DNA from: Nostoc punctiforme PCC 73102
GTDB lineage: Bacteria; Cyanobacteriota; Cyanobacteriia; Cyanobacteriales; Nostocaceae
DNA length: 32,000 bases
Assembly (NCBI RefSeq): GCF_000020025.1
Contig: NC_010628.1
Span: 4,620,001 to 4,652,000, forward strand
Direction: 5' to 3'
Under the pieces are notes generated by a model. The model saw only the letters and a program-made list of their open reading frames with translations. It was not told the DNA's origin and searched no databases. Each line of letters begins with the position of its first letter. Positions within the stretch are counted from its first letter, which is position 1. Shown here one piece after another: positions 8,271 through 32,000 of this stretch. The translations under genes were made by a program, and so were the position numbers.

Positions 8271-9764
8271 ATGAAATGGGCTATTTACAAAAAGAATACG
8301 GGCAGTTTTGTAATAGCAGTAGCAATTATGACTGGTATCGGCGTAGTTTCGTATCTGAGTTTGCTTCAGTATAAAGAAAATGCTCAATGGGTAACACATA
8401 CACGCGAGGTACTTGAAAAGACAAAAGAAATAATGTCACAGATTAAGGATGCAGAAACTGGACAACGGGGCTATCTTCTCACGGGCAAAAAACGGTATCT
8501 CGAACCCTATCGCATAGCAACTGGCGAGATTGTTCAGCAACTTAAGGCTCTGCGCCAATTGACTGCGGATAACCCCAATCAGCAACGGCGGCTCGATCGC
8601 CTTGAACCCTTGATTACCAAAAAACTGGTTTTGATTGAACAGGCGATTAATGCAAGGAGCAAAGATTTAGAGTCCGCACTGCAAATAGTTCAGACAGATC
8701 GGGGTCAGCAGATTATGGAGGACATCCGAATGCTCACTACAGCTATGGAGAACGAAGAAAATGAGTTGTTGAAACAGAGGTCAATGGAGGCGAACGCCAG
8801 CGCTCATCAAACAACTGTACTGACTATTTTTGGCAGCATTATCGCTTCTGTCATCGTCGGTTTAGCAGCCACGATTACCAATCAGGAACTCGTCAAACGC
8901 AAGCGGATGGAAAATTCTCTGCAAAAAGCTCGCGCTGAATTAGAAATAGAGGTTAACAAACGGACTGCCGAACTGAGAAACACTAACGAAGAATTGCAAA
9001 CTGAAATTAATGAGCGCAAAAAGGCAGAGTCGGAGATTCTGCGGCTGAATGTCCAGCTTGAGCAGCGAGTTGCAGAACGCACGGCACAACTCGAAGCCAC
9101 TAATAAAGAGATGGAAGCATTTAGTTATTCTGTATCTCACGACCTGCGGGCCCCCTTGCGGAGTATCGATGGTTTTAGTCAAGCACTACTAGAAGATTAC
9201 GCTGATAAGCTAGACACACTAGGCCAAAACTACCTCCAGCGAGTGCGTGCAGCCACCCAGCGAATGGCACAACTGATTGACGATTTATTGAATCTGTCAC
9301 GATTGACGCGCAGTGAGATGCGTTGCGAAAAGGTTGATCTGAGCGCACTGGTGGAGGCGATCGCTACAGAGTTGCACAAAACCCAACCAGAACGCCAAGT
9401 AGAGTTTGCGATCGCGCCGGGATTGGTTACTAAAGGTGATGCTCATCTGTTACGGATAGTCCTAGAAAACCTGCTGGGTAATGCGTGGAAGTTTACAGGA
9501 AAACATCAAAAAGCCCGAATAGAATTTGGGCTTTTACAGCAAGATGACACCTATGTGTATTTTGTCCGTGATGATGGCACAGGCTTCGATATGGCCTATG
9601 TTGAGAAACTCTTCGGTGCTTTTCAGCGCCTGCACGCCATGACTGAGTTTGAAGGCACTGGCATCGGATTAGCTACTGTGCAAAGGATTGTTCACCGTCA
9701 TGGTGGCCGTGTCTGGGCTGAAAGCGCAGTAGAACAAGGCGCAACATTTTACTTCACCCTTTAA
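8271..9764 (+). CDS. CHASE3-domain sensor histidine kinase
   Basis: 497 aa. After an N-terminal TM helix comes a CHASE3 signature (WVTHTREVL...[20 protein letters not shown]). A second TM helix and a coiled coil follow. The H-box is [16 protein letters not shown], and the HATPase_c N/G boxes are [15 protein letters not shown] and GTGIGLATV. An AGGAAGG Shine-Dalgarno sequence precedes the ATG. Confidence 0.9.
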
Positions 9765-11473: not shown

Positions 11474-13948
11474 ATGAACCCAGTAAATATATTAGTTGTT
11501 GAAGATGAAATCATCGTGGCAATGGATATACAAAGTCGGCTAAGTAAATTTGGATACACTGTTCTGGGTCTTGCCGATTCTGGAGAAGAAGCAATTAAGA
11601 AAGCAGCAGATGATTCTCTAGATTTAGTTCTAATGGATATTCATCTCAAAGGAAAGATGGACGGTGTTGAGGCTGCTCAGATAATTCATAATATTTTTAA
11701 TGTTCCAATAATATATCTTACTGCTAATGCAGATGAATCAACCTTGGCTCGAGCAAAGGTAACAGAGCCGTTTGGCTACATTCTTAAGCCTTTCAAAGAA
11801 AAAGAATTAAAGTTTACTATTGAAATTACTCTTTCCAAACATCGGACGGAAAAAAAAATAAAACAGAATGAACAATGGCTGACTACTGTACTTAAAAGTA
11901 TTGGGGATGCTGTGATTACTAGCGACGCATCTGGAACTGTGACTTTTATGAATCCTATTGCAGAGGAACTGACGGGCTGGAATTATTCAGACGCGTTTGG
12001 TAAAGAAGCAACAGAAGTATTCAATATTGCTCATGAAGAAACTCGGATAATAATTGAAAGTCCGATAACGCAAGTCCTTCAGTCGGGCATTACTGTCGGT
12101 CTACCAGAACAGACTATACTTATTACTAAAAACGGTGCAGAAATCCCTATTGATGATAGTATTGCAGCGATTAAAGATGACAACGGTAACATCACGGGTG
12201 CAGTTCTTGTTTTTCAGGATATCACCGAGCGCAAGCAGATATTGGCGGCACTAGCGCGTCGCCAGCAAGAATTCAAAGCACTAGTTGAAAATGCACCTGA
12301 TATTATTTCCAGATTTAACACTCAATTGCGCTATGTTTACGTTAATCCAGCTATTGAAAAGGTTACAGGGATATCAGCCGAAACATTTATCGGTAAAACA
12401 AACGCAGAATTAAATCTACCGGAAGAATTTTGCCGGATGTGTGATCGCAAGCTTGGGCAAGTTTTCCAAACCAAGCAAGAAACCGAGTTTGAATGTACTT
12501 TAGCGATCGCTGCCCAAACAAGACATTACCATACCCGTCTTGTGCCTGAATTGGCTAGCGATGAGTCAGTATACTTTGTCTTGAGTATTTCTCGCAATAT
12601 TACTGCTCTAAAACTTGCGGAAGCACAATTAATTCATGATGCCTTTCACGATATACTAACCAGTCTGCCAAACCGCGCCTTGTTTATGGAACGGCTAGAA
12701 CGGGCGCTGATGTTGGCAAAACGACGTGCAGACTATACATTCGCTGTTCTGTTTCTAGATTTAGATCGCTTCAAAGTTGTCAACGACAGTCTCGGTCACA
12801 TGATTGGCGATCAACTACTAACTGCCCTTGCTCGCAGACTGGAAAACTGTGTGCGTGCTGGAGACACAGTTGCCCGGCTTGGGGGAGATGAGTTTACAAT
12901 TCTGCTTGATGATATCAACAACATCAATGACGCAATAGGCGTAGTGGAGCGGATACACGAAGCTCTGACATCTGCGTTCACACTCAGCGGATATGAAGTA
13001 TTTACCACCGTCAGCATTGGCATCGTCGTGAGCAAGGGTAGTTACAACCTACCAGAGCAGATCCTGCGCGATGCTGACATTGCAATGTATCGCGCTAAAG
13101 CATTGGGTAAGGCACGCCATGAGATATTTGACTCAACCATGTACACCCAAATAACGAAGCTATTAGAGTTAGAGATGGATCTACGACGGGCAGTTGAACG
13201 CCAGGAGTTTCAGGTTTACTACCAGCCAATTGTTTTATTAGAAACTTGTAAAATTATTGGCTTCGAGGCTCTCGTTCGCTGGCAACATCCACAGCACGGA
13301 TTAGTTCCTCCAGAAAGCTTTATTCCAATAGCAGAAGAAACTGGGTTGATTATCCCTCTTGGTTATTGGGTATTGGGGGAGGCTTGTCGGCAGATGCGTG
13401 CTTGGCAAATCCAATTTCCGACCGATCCACCCTTGACAATCAGTGTAAATCTTTCCACTAAACAGTTTTTACAACCCGATCTGATTGAGCAAATTAACCA
13501 AATTATGCAAGAGACTGCCCTGGAAGCCAGTAATTTAAAGTTGGAGATTACTGAAAGCGTACTGATGGAAAATATTCAGTCAGCAACTTTTATGCTCTTG
13601 CAACTACAACAGATGAATATCCAATTACACTTAGATGATTTTGGCATAGGCTATTCATCGTTGAGTTACCTGCACCGCTTTCCAAGTCATGCCTTGAAGA
13701 TCGATCGTTCTTTTATTACTAAGATTGGTGCTAATGGAGAAAACTTGGAGATTGTTCAGGCGATTATCACCCTAGCCGAGAGTCTAAATATAGATGTGAT
13801 AGCAGAGGGCATAGAAACGGTAGAGCAACTGTCACAACTTAGAGCCATGAAATGCAAATACGCACAGGGATATTTTTTCTCCCAACCCCTGGATAGCAAG
13901 TCGATAGAAACATTAATTGTATCTGGCATTCAGCCGAGACAAGGATAG
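11474..13948 (+). CDS. response regulator with PAS-PAS-GGDEF-EAL output (c-di-GMP turnover)
   Basis: 824 aa. The receiver has VVEDEIIVAMD and DLVLMDIHL. Two PAS domains follow. The GGDEF domain has an intact RLGGDEF motif and an upstream RAGD (RxxD I-site position). The EAL domain has EALVRW, EITES, DDFGIGYSSLSYL, KIDRSF, EGIET and QGYFF. Confidence 0.9.
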   Translation: MNPVNILVVEDEIIVAMDIQSRLSKFGYTVLGLADSGEEAIKKAADDSLDLVLMDIHLKGKMDGVEAAQIIHNIFNVPIIYLTANADESTLARAKVTEPFGYILKPFKEKELKFTIEITLSKHRTEKKIKQNEQWLTTVLKSIGDAVITSDASGTVTFMNPIAEELTGWNYSDAFGKEATEVFNIAHEETRIIIESPITQVLQSGITVGLPEQTILITKNGAEIPIDDSIAAIKDDNGNITGAVLVFQDITERKQILAALARRQQEFKALVENAPDIISRFNTQLRYVYVNPAIEKVTGISAETFIGKTNAELNLPEEFCRMCDRKLGQVFQTKQETEFECTLAIAAQTRHYHTRLVPELASDESVYFVLSISRNITALKLAEAQLIHDAFHDILTSLPNRALFMERLERALMLAKRRADYTFAVLFLDLDRFKVVNDSLGHMIGDQLLTALARRLENCVRAGDTVARLGGDEFTILLDDINNINDAIGVVERIHEALTSAFTLSGYEVFTTVSIGIVVSKGSYNLPEQILRDADIAMYRAKALGKARHEIFDSTMYTQITKLLELEMDLRRAVERQEFQVYYQPIVLLETCKIIGFEALVRWQHPQHGLVPPESFIPIAEETGLIIPLGYWVLGEACRQMRAWQIQFPTDPPLTISVNLSTKQFLQPDLIEQINQIMQETALEASNLKLEITESVLMENIQSATFMLLQLQQMNIQLHLDDFGIGYSSLSYLHRFPSHALKIDRSFITKIGANGENLEIVQAIITLAESLNIDVIAEGIETVEQLSQLRAMKCKYAQGYFFSQPLDSKSIETLIVSGIQPRQG

Positions 13949-17973: not shown

Positions 17974-19542
17974 CTAAATTCTCACTTCGGAATCTTCCTT
18001 AAGCATATACCAAATACCATCATTCTTTTGACTTAAAATCTGATATTTTTTCTCAACAAATTCTAGCAGATTTGGAAATTTATCTTTAATTATAGCCTGG
18101 GGTTCGTAATCAATAAAAATATAAGGAGGCTTTGATAACTCTAACTGTTTTATAAGTGCTGACCATTGCTCAGATAGAAAATATTCAAGGGCCCAACCAC
18201 GTAGTATCGTTGCTTGAGTCCGACCAGAAAAATAGTAGATAGATGGATCGCCTGCTACATAAATATCACCAATAAGATTTCCTGGTTGAGATATAAAATT
18301 AGCTTCTGAACGAAGAGATGGATATTTGGGTCTAAAGACAGCCTGATATTGCAATCGTGCATCTTCAGTTAAAGCAAAATTATTATTAACCAGAGTAATA
18401 CTTTTTTTTACGAGAGTGAAAGAGAAAGGTAAGAACAATAAAAATACCAGCAAAATAGTTGGAATTCGAGACTTTAATCCTTTTAAGGAATCCCACAATA
18501 TATCTAATCCCTTAGTTGCTAAAATACCTATAGGTACAAATAATAGTAAGTAATGGTATTCCCACAATGCTGTTTCTTGTAAAAGAATAACAGACAAACC
18601 GAAAATGCACCAAACAACAAGTAGCAAAGTCAATATATTCTTAGACTTATACAATGATACATATACTGCAACAGCAGTCATTAAAATTAAAGAATAAAAA
18701 TTCTGTAATAACCATTTCATTCCCAAAACAAAATTAGTCTGATTAAATGCAGCATTAGCAACAATCATTGGTGGATATATAAAAAATGTCTTAAACACTA
18801 TCGCAAAACTATTAACCGAGATAAAGTAGCTGGCAACAACTAAAAGAGGAAATGTAACTCCTATAAAAATTGGGATAAAAATCTCAATGAAGTTTTTTTG
18901 GATAGTGTGGCGTTTTATCAGTATAGAATACATCAATATACTTAGCCATAATGAAACTAATATCACCAGAAATAAGAATTTAAATAGCAGAACAATTCCG
19001 CCTAAAAAGCCTGACATTAAAAGCAGATAAAATCTTTGCTTTCCTTCTTTTTTAAAAGATTTAAAAGTAACCCAAAGACAAAGGAATAAAGGAAAACCGA
19101 CTAGTGCTTCTACTTGAGTCAGATGCCAAGCACCGGAAACAATATAGTAAACGCCAACTGTTAACAAAGGTACTAGACTTGCAATTATCTGATGTCGAAA
19201 ATAGCTTTTTAGAGTCAGCAGCAATATTATCGAAAAAAATACCATGTAAATAAGTTCAAATACATGGATACCAATCTCATTAAAACCAAATAAAGTTCCT
19301 GCTAAAAAATAAAATGAGAAAATCCCTGGTTGTTTAATATCCCAAAAATCCCGATAAAGTACCTTTCCTTGTTGCATCTCCAAAGCACCTAGCCTAAAAA
19401 ATGCTTGATCTCCGTCAAATGGAAAAGGTAAATGTATCAGACCAATAATGACAATAACAATCAAAACTATAAAGTCAATTTTATTTAATTTAGTAATACT
19501 AATCATGAAATTTAAAGTTAGATTTAAGTGACTATTTCGCAA
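17974..19542 (-). CDS. GT-C-fold membrane glycosyltransferase (ArnT/PMT_2-like)
   Basis: 522 aa with more than 10 TM segments. The first-loop acidic motif (FPFDGDQAFF) and YRDFWDIKQPG resemble the D..KPP loop of ArnT/PMT_2 enzymes. A soluble C-terminal domain of about 130 aa follows. The start is TTG at 19542, with AGGA 10 nt upstream; an alternative ATG lies at 19506. Confidence 0.6.
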   Translation of the reverse strand: MRNSHLNLTLNFMISITKLNKIDFIVLIVIVIIGLIHLPFPFDGDQAFFRLGALEMQQGKVLYRDFWDIKQPGIFSFYFLAGTLFGFNEIGIHVFELIYMVFFSIILLLTLKSYFRHQIIASLVPLLTVGVYYIVSGAWHLTQVEALVGFPLFLCLWVTFKSFKKEGKQRFYLLLMSGFLGGIVLLFKFLFLVILVSLWLSILMYSILIKRHTIQKNFIEIFIPIFIGVTFPLLVVASYFISVNSFAIVFKTFFIYPPMIVANAAFNQTNFVLGMKWLLQNFYSLILMTAVAVYVSLYKSKNILTLLLVVWCIFGLSVILLQETALWEYHYLLLFVPIGILATKGLDILWDSLKGLKSRIPTILLVFLLFLPFSFTLVKKSITLVNNNFALTEDARLQYQAVFRPKYPSLRSEANFISQPGNLIGDIYVAGDPSIYYFSGRTQATILRGWALEYFLSEQWSALIKQLELSKPPYIFIDYEPQAIIKDKFPNLLEFVEKKYQILSQKNDGIWYMLKEDSEVRI

Positions 19543-20243: not shown

Positions 20244-20429
20244 ATGGAACGTTCAAAATTAATTGCTATTCTTACAGGTGCGATTTCGGTTATTTTGGCG
20301 ATCGCTTACCTGATCTTAGTCCAACTTCTGGACTACCGAGACATGAAACCCGCCCCCATCAGCCAATTTGACCAAGCGCCTGCTATTATTTCTGTTTTTT
20401 GGCAGATTGACAAAATTATCGAAGTGTAA
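20244..20429 (+). CDS. possible small membrane protein (61 aa)
   Basis: One clear TM helix (LIAILTGAISVILAIAYLILVQLL). A HIP1 site lies inside the ORF. A strong hairpin follows 25 nt after the stop. There is no clear Shine-Dalgarno sequence. Confidence 0.4.
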   Translation: MERSKLIAILTGAISVILAIAYLILVQLLDYRDMKPAPISQFDQAPAIISVFWQIDKIIEV

Positions 20430-20631: not shown

Positions 20632-20803
20632 GTAATTCCTTTTTGACTGATATAACGGTAAGCTGTTTCTAACAAGATTAAATAAAGATAAATTTGTCTG
20701 ATCTGCATAGGCGTAGCCTGTCGTAGATATCTCTGGGTTAACAGGGATCAACGTAAGTTGATTCAAAACCCCAAACTTTTGATGGAAATTTAGAGGTAAG
20801 TTG

Positions 20804-22681
20804 ATGGCTCAGTTTCTACTTGAGACTGTTTGGCTAGTTCCTTGCTATGCCTTAATAGGTGGCTTGTTAGCCGTACCTTGGTCGCCGGGAATTATTCGGA
20901 AAACGGGGCCAAGACCGGCGGGTTACATAAACTTGGTGATGACATTTTTGGCGTTTGTGCATAGTGCGATCGCCTTACAAGCAACTTGGAATCATCCAGC
21001 CCAAGAAGTATTTATTCCTTGGTTATCTACAGCTGGTTTAGACCTCACCATTGCTTTAGAAATATCCTCAGTAAGTGTCGGCGCTTTAGTTGTGATTACT
21101 GGTTTAAATTTGCTGGCGCAGATTTATGCCATCGGTTACATGGAGATGGATTGGGGTTGGGGACGCTTCTATTCCTTATTAGGATTATTTGAAGCAGGAC
21201 TATGTGCCCTGGTTCTATGTAATAACTTGTTCTTCAGCTATGTAATTTTGGAAGTCCTCACACTAGGAACTTACCTACTAGTTGGCTTATGGTTTAGCCA
21301 GCCGTTGGTAGTCTCAGGTGCCAGAGATGCTTTCTTAACCAAGCGGGTGGGAGACTTATTCTTGCTGATGGGCGTGTTGGCATTATGGCCCCTAGCTGGA
21401 ACTTGGAGTTATCCAGAACTAGCTGAGTGGGCGGCGACTGCTAACGTCAACCCGACAACAATGGCACTGGTAGGTTTAGCCTTAATTGCTGGGCCGATGG
21501 GTAAATGTGCCCAGTTCCCTTTGCATCTGTGGTTGGATGAAGCAATGGAAGGCCCAGTTCCCAGTACAATTTTGCGGAATTCGGTAGTAGTTGCTAGTGG
21601 TGCATGGGTGCTGATTAAACTGCAACCTGTGTTAAGCCTGTCGCCCATAGTTTCCTCCGCTATGGTGGGCATTGGGGTAGTGACGGCGGTAGGTGCTTCT
21701 TTAATTGCGATCGCTCAAATTGATCTTAAACGCTGCCAATCCTATTCTGTCAGTGCATACATGGGTTTAGTATTCATCGCTGTGGGAACGCAACAAGATG
21801 AAGCAGCGCTGTTATTAGTACTTACCCATGCTATATCCGCAGCCCTATTGGTGATGAGTACCGGCGGAATTATTTGGAATAGCATCACCCAAGATGTCAC
21901 CCAATTAGGTGGGTTGTGGACACGTCGCCCGATTTCAGCAATAGCCTTTATCGTCGGCACTTTGGGGTTAATTGGTTTTCCACCACTGGGTAGTTTTTGG
22001 GCGCTAGTGAAACTATCAGACGGGTTGTGGGAAACGCAACCTTGGTTAGTGGGAGTAGTGATAACGGTAAATGCTTTGACAGCCGTGAGTTTAACCAGAG
22101 AATTCGGTTTAATTTTTGGTGGTAAAGCTACACAAATGAGTCAGCGATCGCCTGAAGCACACTGGCCGATGATTTTGCCAATGGTAATTCTACTTGGCTT
22201 TAGTCTACATCTTCCTTTAGTGTTGCAAAGCTTATCACTTTTACCCGATTGGGCAACTCTAAATAAAGATGTCGTGCTACTTTTAATTTGGTCAAGTATT
22301 TCCGGTTGCAGCATCACTGGGGTGGTTTATTTAGGGAATATTCCTAAACCAATTCGTCTCCCTTGGAAAGGTCTCCAAGACTTGTTTGCATACGACTTTT
22401 ATACCCCCAAACTCTATCGGATAACCATTATTTTTGGCGTTGCCAAGATTTCCCAACTTGCCGATATGATTGACCGCTTTGTTGTCGATGGCATCGTTAA
22501 TTTGGTTGGTTTATTTTCGCTATTAGGTGGCGAAAGTTTAAAATACAGCACCTCTGGACAAACCCAATTTTACGCCTTAACTGTCTTAATAGGAGTGAGC
22601 ATTTTAGGAATGTGGGTAGCTTGGCCATTTTGGGGTGTGCAGTTTTTAAATTTGATTTTTCCAATTTCGACAGTTGGTTAG
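20804..22681 (+). CDS. ndhF3: NDH-1MS subunit NdhF3 (CO2-uptake NAD(P)H-quinone oxidoreductase subunit F3)
   Basis: About 625 aa, with many TM segments of the NuoL/NdhF antiporter-like type (GKCAQFPLHLWLDEAMEGPVPSTILRNS). It lies in a cluster with ndhD3 and cupA. The ATG at 20804 is preferred over the TTG at 20801, and GAGGT lies 9 nt upstream of the ATG. Confidence 0.85.
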   Translation: MAQFLLETVWLVPCYALIGGLLAVPWSPGIIRKTGPRPAGYINLVMTFLAFVHSAIALQATWNHPAQEVFIPWLSTAGLDLTIALEISSVSVGALVVITGLNLLAQIYAIGYMEMDWGWGRFYSLLGLFEAGLCALVLCNNLFFSYVILEVLTLGTYLLVGLWFSQPLVVSGARDAFLTKRVGDLFLLMGVLALWPLAGTWSYPELAEWAATANVNPTTMALVGLALIAGPMGKCAQFPLHLWLDEAMEGPVPSTILRNSVVVASGAWVLIKLQPVLSLSPIVSSAMVGIGVVTAVGASLIAIAQIDLKRCQSYSVSAYMGLVFIAVGTQQDEAALLLVLTHAISAALLVMSTGGIIWNSITQDVTQLGGLWTRRPISAIAFIVGTLGLIGFPPLGSFWALVKLSDGLWETQPWLVGVVITVNALTAVSLTREFGLIFGGKATQMSQRSPEAHWPMILPMVILLGFSLHLPLVLQSLSLLPDWATLNKDVVLLLIWSSISGCSITGVVYLGNIPKPIRLPWKGLQDLFAYDFYTPKLYRITIIFGVAKISQLADMIDRFVVDGIVNLVGLFSLLGGESLKYSTSGQTQFYALTVLIGVSILGMWVAWPFWGVQFLNLIFPISTVG

Positions 22682-22735: not shown

Positions 22736-23458
22736 ATGAGCATACAACATCCAAAAATTAATCTTTCCAGAAGAAGTTTATTCAAGTTTGGTGCAGGTGC
22801 CATCGGTACGGGTGTACTCACAGTTGGACTTGGCTCAAATTTACTTGCAGCCGAAAAAACCCCAGCAGCGCCAGCAGAAAATGATATTACCCCCGATAAG
22901 GCATTGCAAGAGTTATTAGATGGGAATGAAAGATTTGTCAAAGCAAAACGTCGCAATCCCAACCAAAGCCATTCACGTTTAGTTGAAGTTGCCAAAGGTC
23001 AAAAGCCCTTTGCCTCTGTTTTAGGATGTGCAGATTCACGAGTGCCTTCAGAGATTGTTTTTGACCAAGGACTTGGAGATTTATTTGTTTGCCGCGTAGC
23101 TGGTAATATTGCCACACGAGAAGAAATTGGTAGCCTAGAATTTGGCAGCTTAGTATTAGGCACTAAAGTCATCATGGTAGTGGGACATGAAAGATGTGGT
23201 GCGGTAGGTGCTGCTATTAAAGGCGCTCAAGTCCCAGGGCAAATTGGAAGTTTGCTTGAAGCAATTCAACCAAGTGTAGAAAGTACCAAAGGAAAATCAG
23301 GAGATAAGTTAGAAAATGTCTGTAAAGCAAATATTTTAGCGCAAGTTGGAAAATTGAAGTCATCGTCAGTTTTATCTGAATTAATCAAGGCAGAAAAACT
23401 GAAAATAATTGGTGGTTATTACGATTTAGATACTGGCAGAATCAGTTTAGTAAGTTAG
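22736..23458 (+). CDS. beta-class carbonic anhydrase with twin-arginine (Tat) signal peptide (EcaB-like)
   Basis: 240 aa. The N-terminus has NLSRRSLFKFGAGAIGTGVLTV (an S-R-R-x-F/L-x-K Tat motif plus an h-region, likely cleaved near LLA-AE). The beta-CA zinc and catalytic motifs are intact (GCADSRV and VVGHERCGAV). A GAGGAG Shine-Dalgarno sequence lies 5 nt upstream. Confidence 0.8.
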   Translation: MSIQHPKINLSRRSLFKFGAGAIGTGVLTVGLGSNLLAAEKTPAAPAENDITPDKALQELLDGNERFVKAKRRNPNQSHSRLVEVAKGQKPFASVLGCADSRVPSEIVFDQGLGDLFVCRVAGNIATREEIGSLEFGSLVLGTKVIMVVGHERCGAVGAAIKGAQVPGQIGSLLEAIQPSVESTKGKSGDKLENVCKANILAQVGKLKSSSVLSELIKAEKLKIIGGYYDLDTGRISLVS

Positions 23459-23544: not shown

Positions 23545-25041
23545 ATGTTAAGTGTTTTAATTTGGCTCCCTATTTTAGCCGCCGCTATTATAGCAATATT
23601 ACCTGTAAGTTTCCCTAATCATCGCATTCGTCTAACAGCATTAATTTTTTCTGGAACAGTTCTTGCCTGGAACCTATTTATCCTGCTAAAATTTGATATC
23701 AGCAATCCAACGATGCAATTTAAAGAGTATTTGCCCTGGAATGAAACCCTTGGTTTGAGCTATCAAATAGGTGTTGATGGGCTTTCTATCTTAATGTTGG
23801 TGTTAAATAGCCTACTCACCTGGATTTCGATTTATAGCAGCAATAAAGAAACTGAACGCCCCAGGCTATTCTACTCGATGATTTTATTAGTGAGTGGAGG
23901 GGTTGCAGGTGCTTTTTTAGCGGAGAATTTGCTGCTCTTCTTCCTATTCTACGAACTAGAATTAATCCCCTTCTACTTACTAATTTCCATTTGGGGAGGG
24001 GCAAAACGGGGTTATGCTGGGATTAAATTCCTGATTTATACGGCGGTTTCAGGAGCATTAATTCTGGCGACATTCTTGGGTATGGTGTGGCTGAGTGGTT
24101 CTACCAATTTTGCTTTTGATGCAGTCTCTACAGAAAATCTGTCAACAGCAAAACAAATCCTTTTACTAGCAGGAATAGTCTTAGGTTTTGGTATTAAAAT
24201 TCCCTTGGTTCCCTTCCATACTTGGCTACCCGATGCTTATGTTGAAGCTTCAGCACCAATTGCTATTCTTCTTGGTGGTGTGTTAGCAAAACTGGGAACT
24301 TATGGACTGCTACGATTTGGATTGGGTATGTTTCCTCATGCTTGGAGTATTATTGCACCGACTCTGGCAATTTGGGGAGCAATCAGCGCTATCTATGGGG
24401 CGGTAATTGCGATCGCTCAAACAGATATCAAGCGCATGGTAGCATACAGTTCCGTCGGTCACATGGGTTATATCTTGCTAGCTGGTGCGGCTAGTACTCC
24501 CTTAGCACTCGTTGGTGCAGTCGCCCAAATGTTTAGTCACGGTATCATCCTGGCAATTCTCTTCCACTTGGTGGGAGTCGTGGAAGCCAAAGTTGGCACT
24601 CGCGAGTTAGATAAACTCAATGGTTTAATGAGTCCCATACGCGGTTTACCCCTAATTAGCGCCTTACTAGTCTTAAGTGGGATGGCTAGCGCAGGTATTC
24701 CCGGTTTAACAGGATTTATCGCGGAATTTATTGTCTTTCAAGGTAGTTTCTCTGCCTTCCCCATCCCGACTATTTTGTGTATAGTGGCTAGTGGATTAAC
24801 CGCAGTTTATTTTCTCATCCTCCTCAACCGCACCTGTTTTGGCAGACTCGATAACTTTGCCTACTATCCCAAAGTTCTTTGGTCTGAAAAAATCCCAGCT
24901 TTAATTTTGGCAGCTTTCATCATCTTTTTGGGAGTACAACCCACTTGGTTAGTACGTTGGAGTGAATCTACAACTACAACAATGGTCGCTGCAATTCCCC
25001 CTTTAGAAAAAACCGTAATCTCTGAAGTAGCGCTGAAGTAA
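23545..25041 (+). CDS. ndhD3: NDH-1MS subunit NdhD3 (CO2-uptake NAD(P)H-quinone oxidoreductase chain 4 paralogue)
   Basis: 498 aa of the NuoM/NdhD antiporter-like type (FGIKIPLVPFHTWLPDAYVEASAPIAILLGGVLAKLGTYGLLRF). It lies between ndhF3 and cupA. Confidence 0.85.
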   Translation: MLSVLIWLPILAAAIIAILPVSFPNHRIRLTALIFSGTVLAWNLFILLKFDISNPTMQFKEYLPWNETLGLSYQIGVDGLSILMLVLNSLLTWISIYSSNKETERPRLFYSMILLVSGGVAGAFLAENLLLFFLFYELELIPFYLLISIWGGAKRGYAGIKFLIYTAVSGALILATFLGMVWLSGSTNFAFDAVSTENLSTAKQILLLAGIVLGFGIKIPLVPFHTWLPDAYVEASAPIAILLGGVLAKLGTYGLLRFGLGMFPHAWSIIAPTLAIWGAISAIYGAVIAIAQTDIKRMVAYSSVGHMGYILLAGAASTPLALVGAVAQMFSHGIILAILFHLVGVVEAKVGTRELDKLNGLMSPIRGLPLISALLVLSGMASAGIPGLTGFIAEFIVFQGSFSAFPIPTILCIVASGLTAVYFLILLNRTCFGRLDNFAYYPKVLWSEKIPALILAAFIIFLGVQPTWLVRWSESTTTTMVAAIPPLEKTVISEVALK

Positions 25042-25082
25042 TAAATTTAGAGAGTTACGCATCGATACAGGAGGAAGAAAGG

Positions 25083-25673
25083 ATGAATTTCACATTAATT
25101 CCCAGTGGTCTTGTTTTATTTCGTTTTTTAATATCTCCATTCCTCCTATTAGATGCCTTGGATGGCAAAACCAGTATTTGGTTCATCGTCGGTTTTGTCG
25201 CAGCCTTTCTCTCAGATATTTTTGATGGCATTATTGCGCGACGATTAGGTGTCAGCACTGCCCAATTGCGCCAAGCCGATAGTTGGGCTGATGTCTGCCT
25301 TTTTAGCTGTATCTTCGTGAGTGCGTGGATAGTTCATCAAGATATTCTCGTTACTTATAGCGTCCCTTTGCTAATGATTGTTTTTGCTCAATTGCTGTGG
25401 TGGGTGGTGAATTTAGTGAAATATGGTAAACCCGCTAGCTATCACACCTACTCTGCAAAATTTTGGGGAATCACCCTTTTTATTGCCATTATTGCCTTAT
25501 TTGGCTTTGATTACGCCGGAGTTGCCTTATGGCTGACTTGTATTGCTGGTACAATTCACAGCGTCGAAGAAATTGCTATGACGCTAATATTGCCAGTTTG
25601 GACACATGATGTTTTAAGCATTTTTCATGCCTTGAATATTCGTCAAGAATCACTAACACCAATTACTAAATAA
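25083..25673 (+). CDS. CDP-alcohol phosphatidyltransferase-like integral membrane protein
   Basis: 196 aa, about 5-6 TM segments. The motif DIFDGIIARRLGVSTAQLRQADSWAD fits D-x2-D-G-x2-A-R...D-x3-D, except that the conserved Gly position holds Leu. An AGGAGG Shine-Dalgarno sequence lies upstream. The stop TAA (25671-25673) is 1 nt from the cupA ATG. Confidence 0.55.
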   Translation: MNFTLIPSGLVLFRFLISPFLLLDALDGKTSIWFIVGFVAAFLSDIFDGIIARRLGVSTAQLRQADSWADVCLFSCIFVSAWIVHQDILVTYSVPLLMIVFAQLLWWVVNLVKYGKPASYHTYSAKFWGITLFIAIIALFGFDYAGVALWLTCIAGTIHSVEEIAMTLILPVWTHDVLSIFHALNIRQESLTPITK

Positions 25674-25674
25674 T

Positions 25675-26982
25675 ATGACAGCAATTAAAACAGCAATTAA
25701 ATTACCTCCTTCAACGCACGAATTTGCTGATGTAATTCATCGCTTAGAAGCAGGCGGTGCAATGTTACCCGATACTCCAGAAAATTTGATGCAAATCATC
25801 GGTTTATATAAAGCTTATGCTGTACCGATGGATTTTTACTGGCGTGACCTGCTTTATATTGCTGAAAACGAGTTTTTAAACCCGGTTCCTTTCTTTAAAT
25901 ACTTCTTACCCAAAGAATATTTAGAACTGCATAATCACTATGCTGGCGATGATGCCGATTTACGTATTTGGCGCGGCGAAGCTACTGCACATCCAGAACT
26001 TTTGGCATTTATGGAAAAGGGTGAAACTTTCAAAATGCCAAAGTTATTGCATCACTTGTTCCACGATCGCATTAACATGGAGTTTGCTGAAGCTTGTATG
26101 CGGGCGATGTTATGGCATAGAGGGATGGGTGGACAATTTGACCCTTACCTAGATTCAGACGAATACAAAGCCAACGCTGACCGAGCAATTAAAGCTTATT
26201 TCCAACGGAACCCAGTAATGCTGGGGCTTTACAAGCTGTTCCCCGATATGTTTTTGGAACAGTGCCGCCAGATGTCATACTACGCTAATCTGGGCTTATT
26301 CTGGGAAGTCATGGCCCCGGTATTCTTTGAAATGTCAGACCGCTATGACGAAGGTACCATTAGCACCGTCCCAGAGGCAATGAGCTTCTTAGTTAATGGT
26401 ATATTTGCGATCGCAGGTCGTCCCATTTACCATCACGTTTATATTCGTGGCGAATGCTACGAAATTATCCCTAAATCAAAGGGTTTCATGTGGCTATACG
26501 AAGCCGCATTACCTTACGTAGAAGCTGTTTTCTACCGTACCGCACCCTTCCGGGGGACAAAATCTTATAATGCTCAAGCGCGTCAAGTACCGGAAGACCA
26601 AAAAGATTTTCACTATGGTATTCTTTACGCTGATGTATTTCCAGTCGGTACTGCTGGCATTCCTCCGACATTATTAATGCAAGATATGTTGCATTTTTTG
26701 CCACCATATCTTGTTAATTACTACAGCCAACATTGCCGGGGTGAAGAAGATATGTTGATTCAGTTGGGAGTAAGTTTTCAACGGTCAATGTACTGTGTCA
26801 CTTCTGCGGTAATTCAAGCTTTGCGAACTGCACTTTTATATCCATTAGATGACCAAAATCCCAAGCATTTACAAGCAAATCGAGATTTTTTTGAAATGCA
26901 GCTAAATCGCTTTACTCGACCAGACTATAATATTCGTGATGCTGCTCGTTTAGGGAGTATTCAAAAGCAAGATTATAGATAA
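25675..26982 (+). CDS. cupA: CO2 hydration protein CupA/ChpY
   Basis: 435 aa with ChpXY-family sequence blocks (GAMLPDTPENLMQIIGLYKAYAVPMDFYWRDLLYIAE, HHLFHDRINMEFAEACMRAMLWHRG, GIPPTLLMQDMLHFLPPYL). It lies adjacent to ndhF3 and ndhD3. Confidence 0.9.
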   Translation: MTAIKTAIKLPPSTHEFADVIHRLEAGGAMLPDTPENLMQIIGLYKAYAVPMDFYWRDLLYIAENEFLNPVPFFKYFLPKEYLELHNHYAGDDADLRIWRGEATAHPELLAFMEKGETFKMPKLLHHLFHDRINMEFAEACMRAMLWHRGMGGQFDPYLDSDEYKANADRAIKAYFQRNPVMLGLYKLFPDMFLEQCRQMSYYANLGLFWEVMAPVFFEMSDRYDEGTISTVPEAMSFLVNGIFAIAGRPIYHHVYIRGECYEIIPKSKGFMWLYEAALPYVEAVFYRTAPFRGTKSYNAQARQVPEDQKDFHYGILYADVFPVGTAGIPPTLLMQDMLHFLPPYLVNYYSQHCRGEEDMLIQLGVSFQRSMYCVTSAVIQALRTALLYPLDDQNPKHLQANRDFFEMQLNRFTRPDYNIRDAARLGSIQKQDYR

Positions 26983-26994
26983 GAGATCCCCCAA

Positions 26995-27022
26995 CCCCCC
27001 TTAAGAAGGGGGGCTTTTTTTT
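26995..27022 (+). terminator. intrinsic terminator of the cup operon
   Basis: cccccc (26995-27000), loop ttaagaa, gggggg (27008-27013), then c plus T8 (27015-27022). It begins 13 nt after the cupA stop. Confidence 0.8.
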
Positions 27023-27099
27023 GTGAATTACAATAAGTTTAATTTCTTCAGTGGCAATACTATAAATAAAATTAGACACTCAAATTCCCCTCTTTTTAA

Positions 27100-27192: not shown

Positions 27193-30100
27193 TTATAAAC
27201 CAGATAATACTCCTGCAATACTCGTCAATTCCATAATTTTCTCAAACTGGAAATTATGAGCCAAATTCTGAATAAAATTGCTCAACGTAGCATTTTCTGA
27301 AGGAATTTGTTCAATCAATTCTAAAATTAAGTCATCACTACATTGGGCTGCGGCAGTATACACCTGTTTCACCCATTCAGGCGACATTTCAGACAATAGA
27401 GGAACTAAATCTGTAAGCTTCAAGATTGATTCTGTTATTTGTTGGTTTGCATTTTTTATCTGATAGTTATCTTCTTGATAAATATATTTAACTTCTAAAT
27501 ATTCGCTCAATTTTTTTAATAATTCTTCTTCACGGAAAGGCTTGTTAATATAATCATCACAACCAGCTTTGATTGTTGCCTCTCGCTGTTCTTCAAAGGC
27601 GTTAGCGGTTAAGGCGATAATAATCGTCTTGCGATTTGGGATTGAAGTTTCTTCTCTAGCTTTAATAATTTTGGTGGCTTCGTAGCCGTCCATAATTGGC
27701 ATCCGCATATCCATAAAAATTAGGTGTGGTTGCCATTGTTGCCAAAGTGCGATCGCTTCCGTGCCATTTGCCGCTTCCTGGACTGCAAAACCAATAGATG
27801 TCAAGATTTTTACTAACACTAAACGGCTGTCTATAGAGTCATCAACCACCAAGATGCGGTATTCGTTTTGAGCAGGTGCTAAACTCAGAACTTGCCGTCT
27901 AATTTGTTGGATCTGGATTTCGCTGGCTGCGGCTAGATCAATTTGAATATCAAAGGCAAATGTACTTCCCTCACCAATAATGCTAGTCACGCTAATATCT
28001 CCGCCCATTAGTTCCACATATTTGCGGCTAATTGCTAAACCTAGTCCTGTTCCTTGTTGCGATTTTCTACCGGTTTCAGTTTGTCCAAACGCTTCAAACA
28101 GTAAGTTAATTTCCTGTGGCGCAATACCGCGACCAGTGTCTGTAACCTCGAAGAAGAGATGAGGAGGATGAGGTAAAATTTTCTCCCCCATATTCTCCAT
28201 TGCCACCCGTAACATAACTCTTCCAGTATCGGTAAATTTGATTGCATTTCCCAAGAGGTTAAGCAATACTTGACGCAGTTTACTTTCATCAGCTTGGATA
28301 TACTGCGGAAGGTAAGATGTATATTCAAAATTTAATTCTAAGCCTTTGGAAGTGGCGCGGAAACGCAACATCTCTTCGAGGTTTTCTAAGAGGCGAATTA
28401 AGTCAAAACTGTTGAGATTTAATGTTATTCTGCCGGCTTCAATTTTAGACATTTCCAGAATGTCGTTGATTAAGTTGAGGAGATGTTCGCCAGCACGATT
28501 GATGATTGCTAGATTTTGCTGATGTTCAGTAGATAAAGCCCGATCGTGGCTCATGATTTGGGTAAAACCGAGGATGGCGTTGAGTGGGGTACGCAGTTCG
28601 TGGCTCATGTTGGCGAGGAATTCGCTTTTGGCGCGGTTGGCAGCATCAGCTGTAATCACAGCTTCTTGCAATGCTTGTGACTGCCTTTGAGTCTGCGCCA
28701 GTAATTGTGCTTGCTGTAAAGCCACACCCAACTGATTGCCAATTTGAACTACAATGTTGATTTCTCCTGGTTTCCATTGGCGGGAATCAGAATTTTGATA
28801 ACTCGCTAGTAATCCCCAAATCTGACTACCATATAAAATGGGGACAATGATATAAGCTTTTGCCTGAAAGCGTTCTAAAAGGCTGATGTAAGAGGGATGA
28901 AACTCAGCATTGTAAATGTCTGGGACGCAGCGAAAAGTTGCGCCTTGTGCGTAAATGCCATCTTGAATTGCTTGCATATCAGCATCTTCCGCTTGATTAT
29001 CCCCACTATCCAAAATTTTTGCTAGGCAACGTCCTTGTTGTAAGACACCTTCTGTGAGATTAGGATCGTTGTTATGTTCTTCTATCAGAGAAATCCAACC
29101 ATTACCCACAGACTCAGAGACGAATTCGCCATTCCATTGAGGATTGAAACGATAAACAACAACCCGATCGCAATTGAGTACTTGCCGTAATTCTTGGGTT
29201 GTAGCTGCAAATATAGTCTCTAAATCCAATGTTTGGCGCATCCTTTGAATCACTTGGGCGATCGCTCTTTCCCGTTCTGCACTCTCACGCAGCGCTTCTT
29301 CTGCCAATTTTCTCTCGGTAATATCTGTAATCGTACCGATATAACCTTTTATTTCTCCATCATCTCGAAATTCTGGCAAAGCCTGACAAATTACCCAGAC
29401 AACTGTACTATCATCACACAAAAAGCGATGTTCGTACTTATACATAACTTTAGCAACTCTTGCTTGATTCCATGTCAACAATAGCTGCTCGCGATCGTCT
29501 GGATGTACGGCTTTTGTCCAACCGGTTCCCAGAGACTCTTCTAAATTGCATCCACTAATCTCACTCCAGCGTTGATTAAAATATAAGACATTACCATCCA
29601 CATCAGTGTGAAATATACAAGCTGGGGAGGTTTCTGCTAGCAGTTGATATCGCTGCCGACCTGTTTGTAAAGCTAATTCTGCCAGTTTAGCATCGTTGAT
29701 GTCTGTCCAATAACCGACACATTCTATAGGATTTCCAGTTTCGTCACGAATTAACCTCATCTTTTCGTAAAACCAGTGATAAGTTCCGTCAGCGTGTAAC
29801 CACCGATATTCGTAGGAAGTGTACTCTTGCTCAACCAGCTGGGAAAATTTTTCTGAAATCAGTTCAATATCTTCTGGGTGGACGTGATGCAGCCAGAAAT
29901 TAGGATTTTCGACAAATTCCTGCGCTTCGTAACCAACCATTGCCTTAACGTTCTTACTAATAAAGGTAGTGCTAAAATTGCCTAATGTTTTTTTGCTGCT
30001 ATAAATCACCACAGGGCTAGAAGTAAGCAGATATTGAAGGCGCTCGTTAGCTAAACGTAGTTCTTGTTCGACATGTTTGCGTTCGCGTAGCGCGGCTTGC

Positions 30101-32000
30101 CGTTCGCGTAGTGCTGCTTGCAGTTCGCTAATTTCTACTAAAACAGTGCCCACACCAGAGAGGCGATCGTCTTCACCAGGAATCGGAAAATAAGAAACTA
30201 AAAAGTGGCGGATAATATCTGGTTGTTTAATTGATGCGGCGCTTAATTCTTGATTGAGGATGGGTTCACCTGTCAATAGAACCTGTTGATAAAATGGTTC
30301 TACGACACTGGCTATTTTGGGTAAGGCTTCATGAATGGTCTTGCCAATATGAGCTTCCTGGGATATTCCATTAATTTCCGCTAGTACTTGGTTGATTTGC
30401 ACAAACCGCAGTTGGTTATCTACAATATTCATACCGACGGGAGCCCCTGTAAAAAAGGCATTGAGGCGAGCTTCCCTGAGTGCTAATTCTTGTTCTAGGG
30501 TTTTGCGCTCAATCAACCCACCTAACTGAGCAGCAACAGCATTTACTAGCAAGAGCAAACGTCTATCTACCAATACTGAACTACGTTTAAAAAACACTAA
30601 AACAGCTAATACTTTGTTTCCAGCCAGTATGGGAACACCAAAACCAGCTTTTAATCCTACCTTTGCTGCTTGTTGCGATCGCAAAAAAATTGGCTCTGTA
30701 ACTTCTGAAACATCTTCTATCCATTCTGGTTCCTGATTCTGCCAAACTCTTCCTGGTAGTCCCACTCCCAGAGGAAATTTCACAATTTGACTGTGGCGGC
30801 AAAATTCTTCTAAATTGCTTTGTTCACCATACCAGCCCAGGCTGTGTTCTAAAACACTACTATCTTCATTAGGTATCCATGCTTCACCAAAATCCCAGCC
30901 AATGGTATGACAAATTAAGCGTAAGACCAGTGCTAAAGAGCTATTGACATCATTAGCGCGAGTGATGGCTTGGGTTGTCAACAGTAACAAACGGCTTTCA
31001 TTTTCTGCCTGCTTGCGTTCAGTAATATCTTTCGCTGTGCCTAGTACGTAACATTTTCCATCAATCTCGATCATTTCCGCACTCAGCAAGGTTGTCCTGA
31101 TTTCTCCTGAACAAGTGCAGACATCAATCTCATAGTTACGAATAGCTTTAGTTTTTTGCAGCATCTGGGTAAGAAAATTATATTCTTCTGGATTCACCCA
31201 AATATTCAATTCTTGATCGGTGCGATCGATAACCTGAGAACGAGAATAACCAAAAAACCGACAAAAACTGTCGTTAACTTCGACGAAGCGTTTGTTAGGA
31301 ACAGTAATTAAGGCAATGGGATCGGGAGATGACCGAAAAGCTGATGCTAACTTTTCTTCAGAAGCCCTCCGCGCGGCTTCAGCGCGTTGACGTTCTTTTG
31401 CTTCCAGCACCAAAGATACTAAATTGCCCAGAGAGCGAGCAAAATTTTGATCTTCTAGCGTCCAATGATGAGCAACTCCCACTGCCTCCAAACATAAAAC
31501 CCCTACGGTTTTTCCCTCCTGCCTAATGGGTGTATAGAGTATAGAGGTAATATTTAATCTTGAGTAAGATGGGGAAAATTCTCTAATTCTGGGATCGGTA
31601 TGGGCATCATCTGCGGCGATTGGTTGATCTTGTTGCAAAGCTGCAAAATAAGCTGGATAGTCGGCCTCTGATAAAACAAGTCCTTCACTATGTTGATTGC
31701 GACTGCCCTCAAATAGGTCAAAACACTCGATTTTCAAGCCTGTTTCGTCATACAACCAAACACTGGCCCGTTCCATTCCAATATTTTTGACAGCTGTTTC
31801 TGTAATTTTACCCAAAGCTGCTTTCAAGTCACCCTGATAAAGGATCTGATTTTGCGCCAGTTGGGTTAGCACTAAGTTATGATTGCGGAGCTTAATCGCG
31901 CTCTCTTGGAGTAATTTTTCTATACCTCGACGCTGTGTAATATTACTAGCAGTGCCTGTCATACCTATGACTAAACCCTCTTCGTTGCGTAATGCGATCG
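27193..32000 (-). CDS. multi-sensor hybrid histidine kinase (GAF-PAS-GAF-PAS-PAS-PAS-GAF-HisKA-HATPase_c-REC plus a C-terminal helical tail), N-terminus outside the window
   Basis: The 1589-aa ORF starts at Met 31962, but the frame stays open to the window edge. The upstream residues IALRNEEGLVIG-MTGTASNITQRR read like the end of another PAS domain. The H-box is FLANMSHELRTPLNAILGF. ATPase boxes are LLGNAIKFT, DTGRGI and GTGLGLAISRKYVELMGG. The receiver has ILVVDDSIDSR and LIFMDMRMPIMDG. Confidence 0.9.
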   Translation of the reverse strand, partial: IALRNEEGLVIGMTGTASNITQRRGIEKLLQESAIKLRNHNLVLTQLAQNQILYQGDLKAALGKITETAVKNIGMERASVWLYDETGLKIECFDLFEGSRNQHSEGLVLSEADYPAYFAALQQDQPIAADDAHTDPRIREFSPSYSRLNITSILYTPIRQEGKTVGVLCLEAVGVAHHWTLEDQNFARSLGNLVSLVLEAKERQRAEAARRASEEKLASAFRSSPDPIALITVPNKRFVEVNDSFCRFFGYSRSQVIDRTDQELNIWVNPEEYNFLTQMLQKTKAIRNYEIDVCTCSGEIRTTLLSAEMIEIDGKCYVLGTAKDITERKQAENESRLLLLTTQAITRANDVNSSLALVLRLICHTIGWDFGEAWIPNEDSSVLEHSLGWYGEQSNLEEFCRHSQIVKFPLGVGLPGRVWQNQEPEWIEDVSEVTEPIFLRSQQAAKVGLKAGFGVPILAGNKVLAVLVFFKRSSVLVDRRLLLLVNAVAAQLGGLIERKTLEQELALREARLNAFFTGAPVGMNIVDNQLRFVQINQVLAEINGISQEAHIGKTIHEALPKIASVVEPFYQQVLLTGEPILNQELSAASIKQPDIIRHFLVSYFPIPGEDDRLSGVGTVLVEISELQAALRERQAALRERKHVEQELRLANERLQYLLTSSPVVIYSSKKTLGNFSTTFISKNVKAMVGYEAQEFVENPNFWLHHVHPEDIELISEKFSQLVEQEYTSYEYRWLHADGTYHWFYEKMRLIRDETGNPIECVGYWTDINDAKLAELALQTGRQRYQLLAETSPACIFHTDVDGNVLYFNQRWSEISGCNLEESLGTGWTKAVHPDDREQLLLTWNQARVAKVMYKYEHRFLCDDSTVVWVICQALPEFRDDGEIKGYIGTITDITERKLAEEALRESAERERAIAQVIQRMRQTLDLETIFAATTQELRQVLNCDRVVVYRFNPQWNGEFVSESVGNGWISLIEEHNNDPNLTEGVLQQGRCLAKILDSGDNQAEDADMQAIQDGIYAQGATFRCVPDIYNAEFHPSYISLLERFQAKAYIIVPILYGSQIWGLLASYQNSDSRQWKPGEINIVVQIGNQLGVALQQAQLLAQTQRQSQALQEAVITADAANRAKSEFLANMSHELRTPLNAILGFTQIMSHDRALSTEHQQNLAIINRAGEHLLNLINDILEMSKIEAGRITLNLNSFDLIRLLENLEEMLRFRATSKGLELNFEYTSYLPQYIQADESKLRQVLLNLLGNAIKFTDTGRVMLRVAMENMGEKILPHPPHLFFEVTDTGRGIAPQEINLLFEAFGQTETGRKSQQGTGLGLAISRKYVELMGGDISVTSIIGEGSTFAFDIQIDLAAASEIQIQQIRRQVLSLAPAQNEYRILVVDDSIDSRLVLVKILTSIGFAVQEAANGTEAIALWQQWQPHLIFMDMRMPIMDGYEATKIIKAREETSIPNRKTIIIALTANAFEEQREATIKAGCDDYINKPFREEELLKKLSEYLEVKYIYQEDNYQIKNANQQITESILKLTDLVPLLSEMSPEWVKQVYTAAAQCSDDLILELIEQIPSENATLSNFIQNLAHNFQFEKIMELTSIAGVLSGL

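Follow-up and report, generated by a model that had tools for sequence, protein, structure and literature searches.

A non-canonical CDP-alcohol phosphatidyltransferase gene kept between ndhD3 and cupA in cyanobacterial NDH-1S operons

Introduction

A 32,000-nucleotide (nt) stretch of the genome of the cyanobacterium Nostoc punctiforme PCC 73102 (contig NC_010628.1, positions 4,620,001 to 4,652,000; hereafter the window) carries genes of the NDH-1S module of the CO2-hydrating complex NDH-1MS in the order ndhF3, beta-carbonic anhydrase (CA) gene, ndhD3, an open reading frame (ORF) of 196 amino acids (aa), cupA and a terminator. The 196-aa ORF belongs to the cytidine diphosphate (CDP)-alcohol phosphatidyltransferase family and is referred to here as the CDP-OH gene, and the locus raises the question of why a member of a family of lipid enzymes should be kept between two genes of this complex. 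The question touches a current dispute, over how NDH-1MS and NDH-1MS′ hydrate CO2, and in a 2026 cryo-EM preprint the proposed zinc site between the Cup and NdhF subunits is re-read as a pocket for phosphatidylglycerol (PG) (bioRxiv 10.64898/2026.08.03.742399). A phosphatidyltransferase-family gene kept by selection directly before cupA in numerous filamentous cyanobacteria would allow genetic tests of whether the CO2-hydration machinery includes a specific lipid. The analysis described below found that a non-canonical phosphatidyltransferase subfamily is kept in the NDH-1S operon across deep cyanobacterial divergences, and this operon position suggests, but does not prove, that the complex has its own lipid supplier. 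No work linking a phosphatidyltransferase to ndhD3 or cupA was found in the literature that was searched.

The open reading frame upstream of cupA and its junction

A preliminary description of the window, made from the sequence alone, had placed the ORF one nucleotide before cupA, and the coordinates were the same when they were re-read: the ORF begins at the ATG at 25083 and ends with the TAA at 25671-25673 on the forward strand, and the junction reads TAAtATG (Table 1). An AGGAGG element precedes the CDP-OH gene, and a Shine-Dalgarno-like (SD-like) element is located 6-8 nt upstream of every operon gene in the window except cupA, for which no such element was identified in the 25 upstream nucleotides; no terminator-like site was identified between ndhD3, the CDP-OH gene and cupA. 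Because cupA lacks an SD element and its start codon adjoins the preceding stop codon, termination-reinitiation coupling of cupA to the CDP-OH gene is likely in this genome, as judged from its nucleotide sequence. The coupled translation previously proposed is in this respect upheld, but the matched stoichiometry that had been read from it is not, as coupling does not show stoichiometry and the junction is restricted to one clade. The 1-nt gap was observed in the window and in seven Nostoc loci, and in another three loci the two ORFs share 4-26 nt; in the remaining loci the gap is mostly 10-190 nt, with a maximum of 882 nt, and in these spaced loci cupA usually has its own AGGA at position -6 or -7. 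The tight 1-nt junction is a derived trait limited to the Nostoc clade.

The ORF is under purifying selection, with dN/dS values of 0.07-0.15 against eleven orthologous loci; over the same genome pairs the values are 0.07-0.115 for ndhD3, 0.06-0.11 for ndhF3 and 0.025-0.08 for cupA, so that the constraint equals that on ndhD3 and ndhF3. Identical or near-identical copies of the protein are encoded in many Nostoc genomes, and orthologs with at least 70% identity are found across the Nostocales, Kamptonema and Microcoleus. The coding sequence and the predicted structure of its product (see below) indicate that the ORF is a real, functional gene.

Family assignment, signature and predicted fold

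The assignment to the CDP-alcohol phosphatidyltransferase family was confirmed by a hidden Markov model search, in which residues 5-156 matched positions 2-150 of the 152 in PF01066 (CDP-OH_P_transf) with E=1.7e-16 and 61.4 bits (gathering cutoff 22), far above chance. The strict signature of the family, D-x2-D-G-x2-A-R-x7,8-G-x3-D-x3-D, is not matched, as seven of the eight signature residues are kept and the second glycine is replaced by Leu62; the motif reads D45-IF-D48-G49-II-A52-R53-RLGVSTAQ-L62-RQA-D66-SWA-D70. In an ungapped alignment with the phosphatidylglycerophosphate (PGP) synthase PgsA of Staphylococcus aureus (7drj; motif D57xxD60G61xxA64R65...G74xxxD78xxxD82), Leu62 falls on Gly74, in agreement with the glycine-to-leucine exchange noted earlier, and all four aspartates and the DG..AR residues are kept.

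The model predicted by AlphaFold2 from an alignment of 100 sequences (mean pLDDT 97.1, pTM 0.90) consists of six long transmembrane (TM) helices and a short C-terminal helix, consistent with the polytopic membrane protein described previously, and in this model the signature extends over TM2, the following loop and TM3, as in the six-TM catalytic fold of the family. When the model was compared with the Protein Data Bank (PDB) using Foldseek, the top matches were all CDP-alcohol phosphotransferases, the best being S. aureus PgsA (7DRJ/7DRK; TM-score 0.63-0.69 over the full length, 20% identity), followed by PIP synthases, AF2299 and IPCT-DIPPS. A profile-profile alignment of the family with PgsA by hhalign gave a probability of 95.5% over 155 columns; in the profile search of the PDB, a narrow 18-sequence profile returned no CDP-OH structure, whereas the broader 100-sequence profile did. 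Like PgsA, which is also about 190 aa long, the CDP-OH protein has six TM helices, the four aspartates and the equivalents of G61, A64 and R65 at the same places, and a basic residue after the variant position (PgsA K75, here R63). PssA (7POW/7B1K), the PIP synthases (6H53/5D92), AF2299, IPCT-DIPPS and CPT1 share the superfamily signature on TM2-TM3; these other solved structures are weaker matches (E 2e-4 to >1; TM-score 0.4-0.53), and all of them keep the second glycine, which stacks on the cytosine ring (PMC11696302).

A subfamily with leucine at the second glycine position

A HMMER search over 1.84 billion cluster representatives (clusters at 50% identity) returned 1327 clusters with full-length matches at E<=1e-3, 469 at E<=1e-10 and 46 at E<=1e-30. 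Among 128 representatives of 32-55% identity, D45, D48, G49, A52, R53, D66 and D70 are essentially invariant, and R63, H121 (invariant), K126, D176 and A183 are conserved specifically in this group; His121, Lys126 and Asp176 are invariant residues of its own, unlike PgsA. Position 62 is leucine in 105, valine in 10 and glycine in seven of 129 sequences. Since leucine is found at this position across the subfamily, the exchange is the hallmark of a large, old and uncharacterised subfamily and not a sign of decay of this copy. The earlier suggestion that the protein might be a catalytically altered paralogue recruited as a membrane anchor for CupA is not supported by these data, as the leucine also occurs outside the cyanobacteria and is older than the linkage to the operon, and the metal-binding aspartates are invariant in linked and unlinked copies.

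Source names place members of the subfamily outside the cyanobacteria in Acidobacteria, Bacteroidota, Gammaproteobacteria and Chthonomonadales; the names include Thermoanaerobaculia, Terracidiphilus, Saprospiraceae, Thiotrichaceae, further Gammaproteobacteria and Chthonomonadales. A metagenome-assembled genome (MAG) labelled 'Cyanobacteria bacterium' is also among the sources. Annotations are generic or conflicting (PgsA, PssA or cardiolipin synthase, as if assigned at random), and a profile search for named members in other phyla returned generic names only. The Nostoc protein scored 18-20 bits with the NCBIfam models for pgsA, pssA, ClsA and archaetidylserine synthase, the cutoffs of which are 107-240 bits, and none of 100 subfamily relatives scanned came near the cutoff of these models. 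Once the chemistry of the subfamily (469 clusters) is defined, many annotations would be corrected, and a new lipid or donor nucleotide might emerge.

In S. aureus PgsA, the nucleotide pocket is outlined by Gly61, Ala64, Arg65 and Gly74, Asn5 binds the CDP moiety, and Lys83, Arg110, Arg118 and Lys137 hold the 3′-phosphate of the glycerol 3-phosphate (G3P) head group (PMC8640168); in yeast CPT1 the cytosine ring lies between the two glycines and the alanine of the signature (PMC11696302). At about 20% identity to PgsA, the subfamily has leucine for Gly74, W/A/L/V for Asn5 (position 8) and T/L/V/A/I for Lys83 (V71 in the Nostoc protein), and Lys75 is kept as Arg63. Lys135 is probably kept as K/R116, and R110, R118 and K137 have no match in the subfamily, although the alignment is of low confidence in that region and confident around N5, G74 and K83. 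This pattern suggests that the metal centre with its four aspartates and the phosphate handling by DG..AR were kept while the nucleotide and acceptor pockets were rebuilt. The subfamily is accordingly not a canonical PgsA, and it probably uses a different donor, a different acceptor or both.

These comparisons bear directly on the possibility that the gene is simply the housekeeping PGP synthase of these organisms, which would agree with JGI names such as 'phosphatidylglycerophosphate synthase' and with PgsA as the best structural match. The residue that binds the G3P phosphate in S. aureus PgsA, Lys83, is replaced by a hydrophobic one, there is no counterpart of Asn5 or Gly74, the scores with the PgsA models are far below their cutoffs (TIGR00560, 19.2 bits against 109.1; NF008090, 12.2 against 304), and the distribution of the gene is patchy. 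To our knowledge, PG is essential in all cyanobacteria, which also counts against this explanation. The protein sequence largely refutes it, and it is considered very improbable.

Side observations, in members from other sources, connect the subfamily with other domains and genes. A 540-aa protein from an ENA metagenome (P0215) carries a C-terminal fatty-acid desaturase domain (PF00487, 70 bits), and one member carries Lcl_C; most long members, several of 340-414 aa among them, have C-terminal extensions that lack a Pfam match. In two gammaproteobacterial contigs (L086 3496..4585; L089 2472..3585), one of them from a Thiotrichaceae MAG, the subfamily gene directly follows a gene for a CarS-like cytidylyltransferase (PF01864, CDP-archaeol-synthase-like), which adjoins a divergent Exo_endo_phos gene; this pair may constitute a self-contained pathway for a CDP-activated lipid. 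The ten contexts from other phyla that were looked up were mostly uninformative, and only the CarS-like pairing recurred. As side observations, the desaturase fusion and the CarS-like pairing tie the subfamily to lipid metabolism.

Linkage to ndhD3 and cupA

The co-occurrence with cupA was examined by a locus scan with one genome per GTDB species, which returned 80 loci. In 51 of these the gene follows ndhD3, precedes cupA or does both, the arrangement being ndhF3-(beta-CA)-ndhD3-X-cupA, where X is the CDP-OH gene, and ndhD3 was found upstream of it in every linked locus that reaches that far. Linked copies occur in Nostocales, Microcoleus-type Oscillatoriales (Microcoleus/Tychonema/Kamptonema), Aerosakkonema, Leptolyngbya FACHB-8 and an Elainellaceae MAG; the lineages of unlinked copies include Coleofasciculaceae/Allocoleopsis, Microseira, Planktothrix, Chamaesiphon, Nodosilinea, Stenomitos, Pseudanabaena, Spirulina, Calothrix parasitica, Fischerella muscicola and Plectonema radiosum. 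Co-occurrence with cupA is in this way confirmed. Calothrix parasitica NIES-267 has two nearly identical unlinked copies (L073, L076), neither of them near ndh or cup genes and each about 86 nt from an ORF of a serine/threonine-kinase-plus-pentapeptide-repeat family that was also met in other loci.

The cyanobacterial sequences group into a single clade by neighbour joining. Its basal branch consists entirely of unlinked copies, and its crown contains the linked copies, with several unlinked lineages interleaved among them. The simplest history compatible with this tree would be that the gene entered the operon once, long ago, and that its linkage was lost several times thereafter. The spacers vary widely among the linked loci, from 19 to 313 nt between ndhD3 and the CDP-OH gene and from -26 to +882 nt between the latter and cupA. 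Maintenance of the gene order while the spacers drift speaks for, but does not prove, selection on co-expression with the operon.

The variation in linkage also invites a neutral explanation, in which the gene encodes an ordinary membrane-lipid enzyme whose place in the operon is a frozen accident, retained as it would be difficult to excise without harm to the expression of cupA. In favour of this, unlinked orthologs with variable neighbours are present in many cyanobacteria, the basal branch is wholly unlinked, members in other phyla mostly stand alone, and model strains manage without the gene. Conservation of the order over very deep divergences would be unexpected under neutrality when the spacers are so variable; in addition, the gene has a strong SD element of its own, and the expression of cupA depends on it in one clade. 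A passenger gene is on this evidence a minor, though real, possibility.

A possible role in lipid supply to NDH-1MS

The preferred, still tentative, reading is that the CDP-OH gene encodes an accessory lipid enzyme of the NDH-1MS module, from an uncharacterised subfamily with the PgsA fold, that is held in the operon. Under this proposal the product would be a functional integral-membrane CDP-alcohol phosphatidyltransferase with a PgsA-like six-TM fold, as its sequence and predicted model indicate. Its gene would have entered the interval between ndhD3 and cupA in an ancestor shared by a large group of filamentous cyanobacteria and, by this placement, would be transcribed together with the NDH-1S module, which is inducible by low CO2. 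Translation of cupA would in addition have become dependent, in the Nostoc punctiforme clade, on it through the TAAtATG junction and the absence of an SD element. The identity, conservation and co-location of the gene are established. In its most likely role, which is inferred, the enzyme would make or remodel an anionic phospholipid, PGP-like or with a related head group, in the thylakoid membrane when NDH-1MS is induced, and this lipid would serve assembly or function at the membrane interface of CupA, NdhF3 and NdhD3. The protein would act as an accessory enzyme and not as a stoichiometric subunit.

The premise of lipid supply gains independent plausibility from the NDH-1MS′ preprint, which describes a PG with a fully resolved head group in the CupB/NdhF4 pocket formerly assigned to zinc; this PG is hydrogen-bonded to His88, Trp89 and Arg93 of CupB and Arg37 and Trp454 of NdhF4, with Tyr41 contacted via water, and the binding residues are given as equivalent to His130/Arg135 of CupA and Arg37/Tyr41 of NdhF3 (bioRxiv 10.64898/2026.08.03.742399). 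Their counterparts are kept in the proteins encoded in the window, as H127-x2-H130-x-R132-x3-E136 in CupA and R37, Y41 and E114 in NdhF3. CupA also contacts several lipids in NDH-1MS (PMC6981117). By analogy, a PgsA-fold gene directly before cupA is a plausible candidate supplier of the interface lipid. An extension of this proposal, in which the operon encodes its own lipid-cofactor synthase and a specific anionic lipid, either PG or one with a new head group from a non-canonical donor, is made on demand when the complex is induced and occupies the CupA/NdhF3 pocket as a functional part of the CO2-hydration site, is considered quite unlikely.

A number of observations weigh against a role as lipid supplier. 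In the remaining 29 of the 80 loci, with orthologs of 55-76% identity, ndh and cup genes are absent from the region in reach and neighbours are not conserved beyond lineage-local synteny, and in Plectonema radiosum the gene is kept with no ndhF3, ndhD3 or cupA beside it. The consecutive locus tags of the Synechocystis operon sll1732-1736 (ndhF3-ndhD3-cupA-cupS-cupAR; PMC11456788) and of the Nostoc PCC 7120 operon alr4156-4158 (PMC7699953) leave no such gene in either. The PG-containing structure of NDH-1MS′ is itself described, in the text available, without such an enzyme (bioRxiv 10.64898/2026.08.03.742399), so that housekeeping lipid synthesis presumably suffices in that organism. As regards the enzyme, an acceptor pocket that appears unlike that of PgsA limits its candidacy as a supplier of PG, and a bulky leucine where glycine lines the cytosine pocket (PMC8640168, PMC11696302) could mean a different donor or poor activity. 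The whole subfamily is uncharacterised biochemically and genetically, and the low scores with the NCBIfam pgsA, pssA and ClsA models (about 19-20 bits against 107-240) place it in none of these named classes.

Comparison with CupAR and CupS

Because 29 loci stand alone and the operons of the model strains lack the gene, it is not an obligatory or universal component of NDH-1MS; co-occurrence wherever the complex exists, as expected of a subunit, was not observed (51 loci linked, 29 unlinked). It could nevertheless be a structural accessory subunit or assembly factor that binds NdhD3/NdhF3 in the membrane and holds CupA in place or stabilises it, whether or not it is catalytically active, in the manner of CupAR or CupS. 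Its location between two subunit genes, the coupling of cupA translation in the Nostoc clade and the absence of cupS from the operon of every linked locus are compatible with this role, as is the stronger constraint on the cyanobacterial clade relative to the wider subfamily (mean column identity 75% against 32%), which includes many clade-specific invariant aromatic residues. A precedent is CupAR, a small membrane protein encoded in the operon that interacts with NdhD3 and NdhF3 (PMC11456788); its description makes outdated the earlier remark that no additional membrane subunit is known in NDH-1MS. Like the CDP-OH gene, cupAR is a lineage-specific extra gene of this operon. Unlike the CDP-OH protein, CupAR (sll1736) has 127 aa, two TM segments and no enzyme domain, is encoded after cupS and acts as a negative regulator; the two show no sequence relationship, and CupAR was ruled out as the same gene.

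CupS is also a lineage-variable accessory of the NDH-1S module, and operons that contain the CDP-OH gene lack cupS: no cupS follows cupA in the window, and no conserved cupS-like ORF was found downstream of cupA in the linked loci. This anti-correlation exists but is confounded with phylogeny. In contrast to the membrane-embedded CDP-OH protein, CupS is soluble, has a mass of 16 kDa and forms a cap over CupA at its cytoplasmic face (PMC6981117). Nostoc PCC 7120 has a putative cupS (alr1320) at another site in its genome (PMC7699953), hence it has not been replaced there, and the suggestion that the CDP-OH protein compensates for an absent CupS is not supported. The same finding argues against a subunit role, as do the catalytic residues, which are equally invariant in linked, unlinked cyanobacterial and wider-subfamily copies, the 29 unlinked orthologs and the clade-limited tight junction. 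The published descriptions of NDH-1MS and NDH-1MS′, with structures from Thermosynechococcus, list no such subunit in the portions available. A structural role is for these reasons regarded as unlikely, and an accessory lipid enzyme is still the preferred reading.

Other features of the window

The features identified in the operon and around it are listed in Table 1.

Table 1. Coordinates of the NDH-1S operon features in the window.
Feature	Position	Strand	Remarks
Small ORF	20244..20429	+	Upstream of ndhF3; 61 aa with a single predicted TM segment; 62-97% aa identity among 23 Nostocales loci; possibly belongs to the locus
ndhF3	20801..22681	+	Proton_antipo_M 168 bits, Proton_antipo_N; likely true start ATG 20804
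beta-CA gene	22736..23458	+	Between ndhF3 and ndhD3; Pro_CA 134 bits; twin-arginine (Tat)-like signal SRRSLFKFG, weak TAT_signal match
ndhD3	23545..25041	+	Proton_antipo_M 222 bits
SD element AGGAGG of the CDP-OH gene	25069..25074	+	8 nt before ATG
CDP-OH gene	25083..25673	+	196 aa, predicted six-TM; CDP-alcohol phosphatidyltransferase family, Leu-variant subfamily
Signature D45-x2-D48-G49-x2-A52-R53-x8-L62-R63-x2-D66-x3-D70	25215..25292	+	TM2, loop, TM3
Junction TAAtATG, CDP-OH gene to cupA	25671..25677	+	1-nt gap; cupA ATG 25675
cupA (chpY)	25675..26982	+	ChpXY 554 bits; TIGR01964 769 bits
Intrinsic terminator-like hairpin	26995..27023	+	8 bp (6 GC) and T-run downstream of cupA, closing the operon

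Of the 51 linked loci, 28 have the beta-CA insertion between ndhF3 and ndhD3. CAs of the ecaB type are scattered in the genomes of one comparative study (PMC9120777), and given this distribution, an exported CA with a Tat-like signal inside an NDH-1S operon is worth a separate look.

On the reverse strand, an ORF of 1589 aa (27193..31962) converges on the terminator of cupA; judged by eye and without a domain scan, it resembles a multi-domain GAF/PAS histidine kinase with a receiver domain, i.e., a hybrid sensor kinase. The upstream half of the window contains two-component and c-di-GMP genes, including a CHASE3 histidine kinase (8271..9764), response regulators and a PAS-GGDEF-EAL protein (11474..13948). 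An ORF of 521 aa on the reverse strand (17974..19542), located between an O-methyltransferase gene and the region of the small ORF and ndhF3, had no Pfam match at E<=1e-3.

The small 61-aa ORF (MERSKLIAILTGAISVILAIAYLILVQLLDYRDMKPAPISQ...) had no Pfam match either; in 23 loci from Nostocales it is kept at a distance of 340-630 nt upstream of ndhF3. The copy in Plectonema radiosum NIES-515 (L024 6729..6929) is located 71 nt upstream of the CDP-OH gene without ndhF3, ndhD3 or cupA, an arrangement which suggests either the remnant of a deletion or an older pairing of the two genes.

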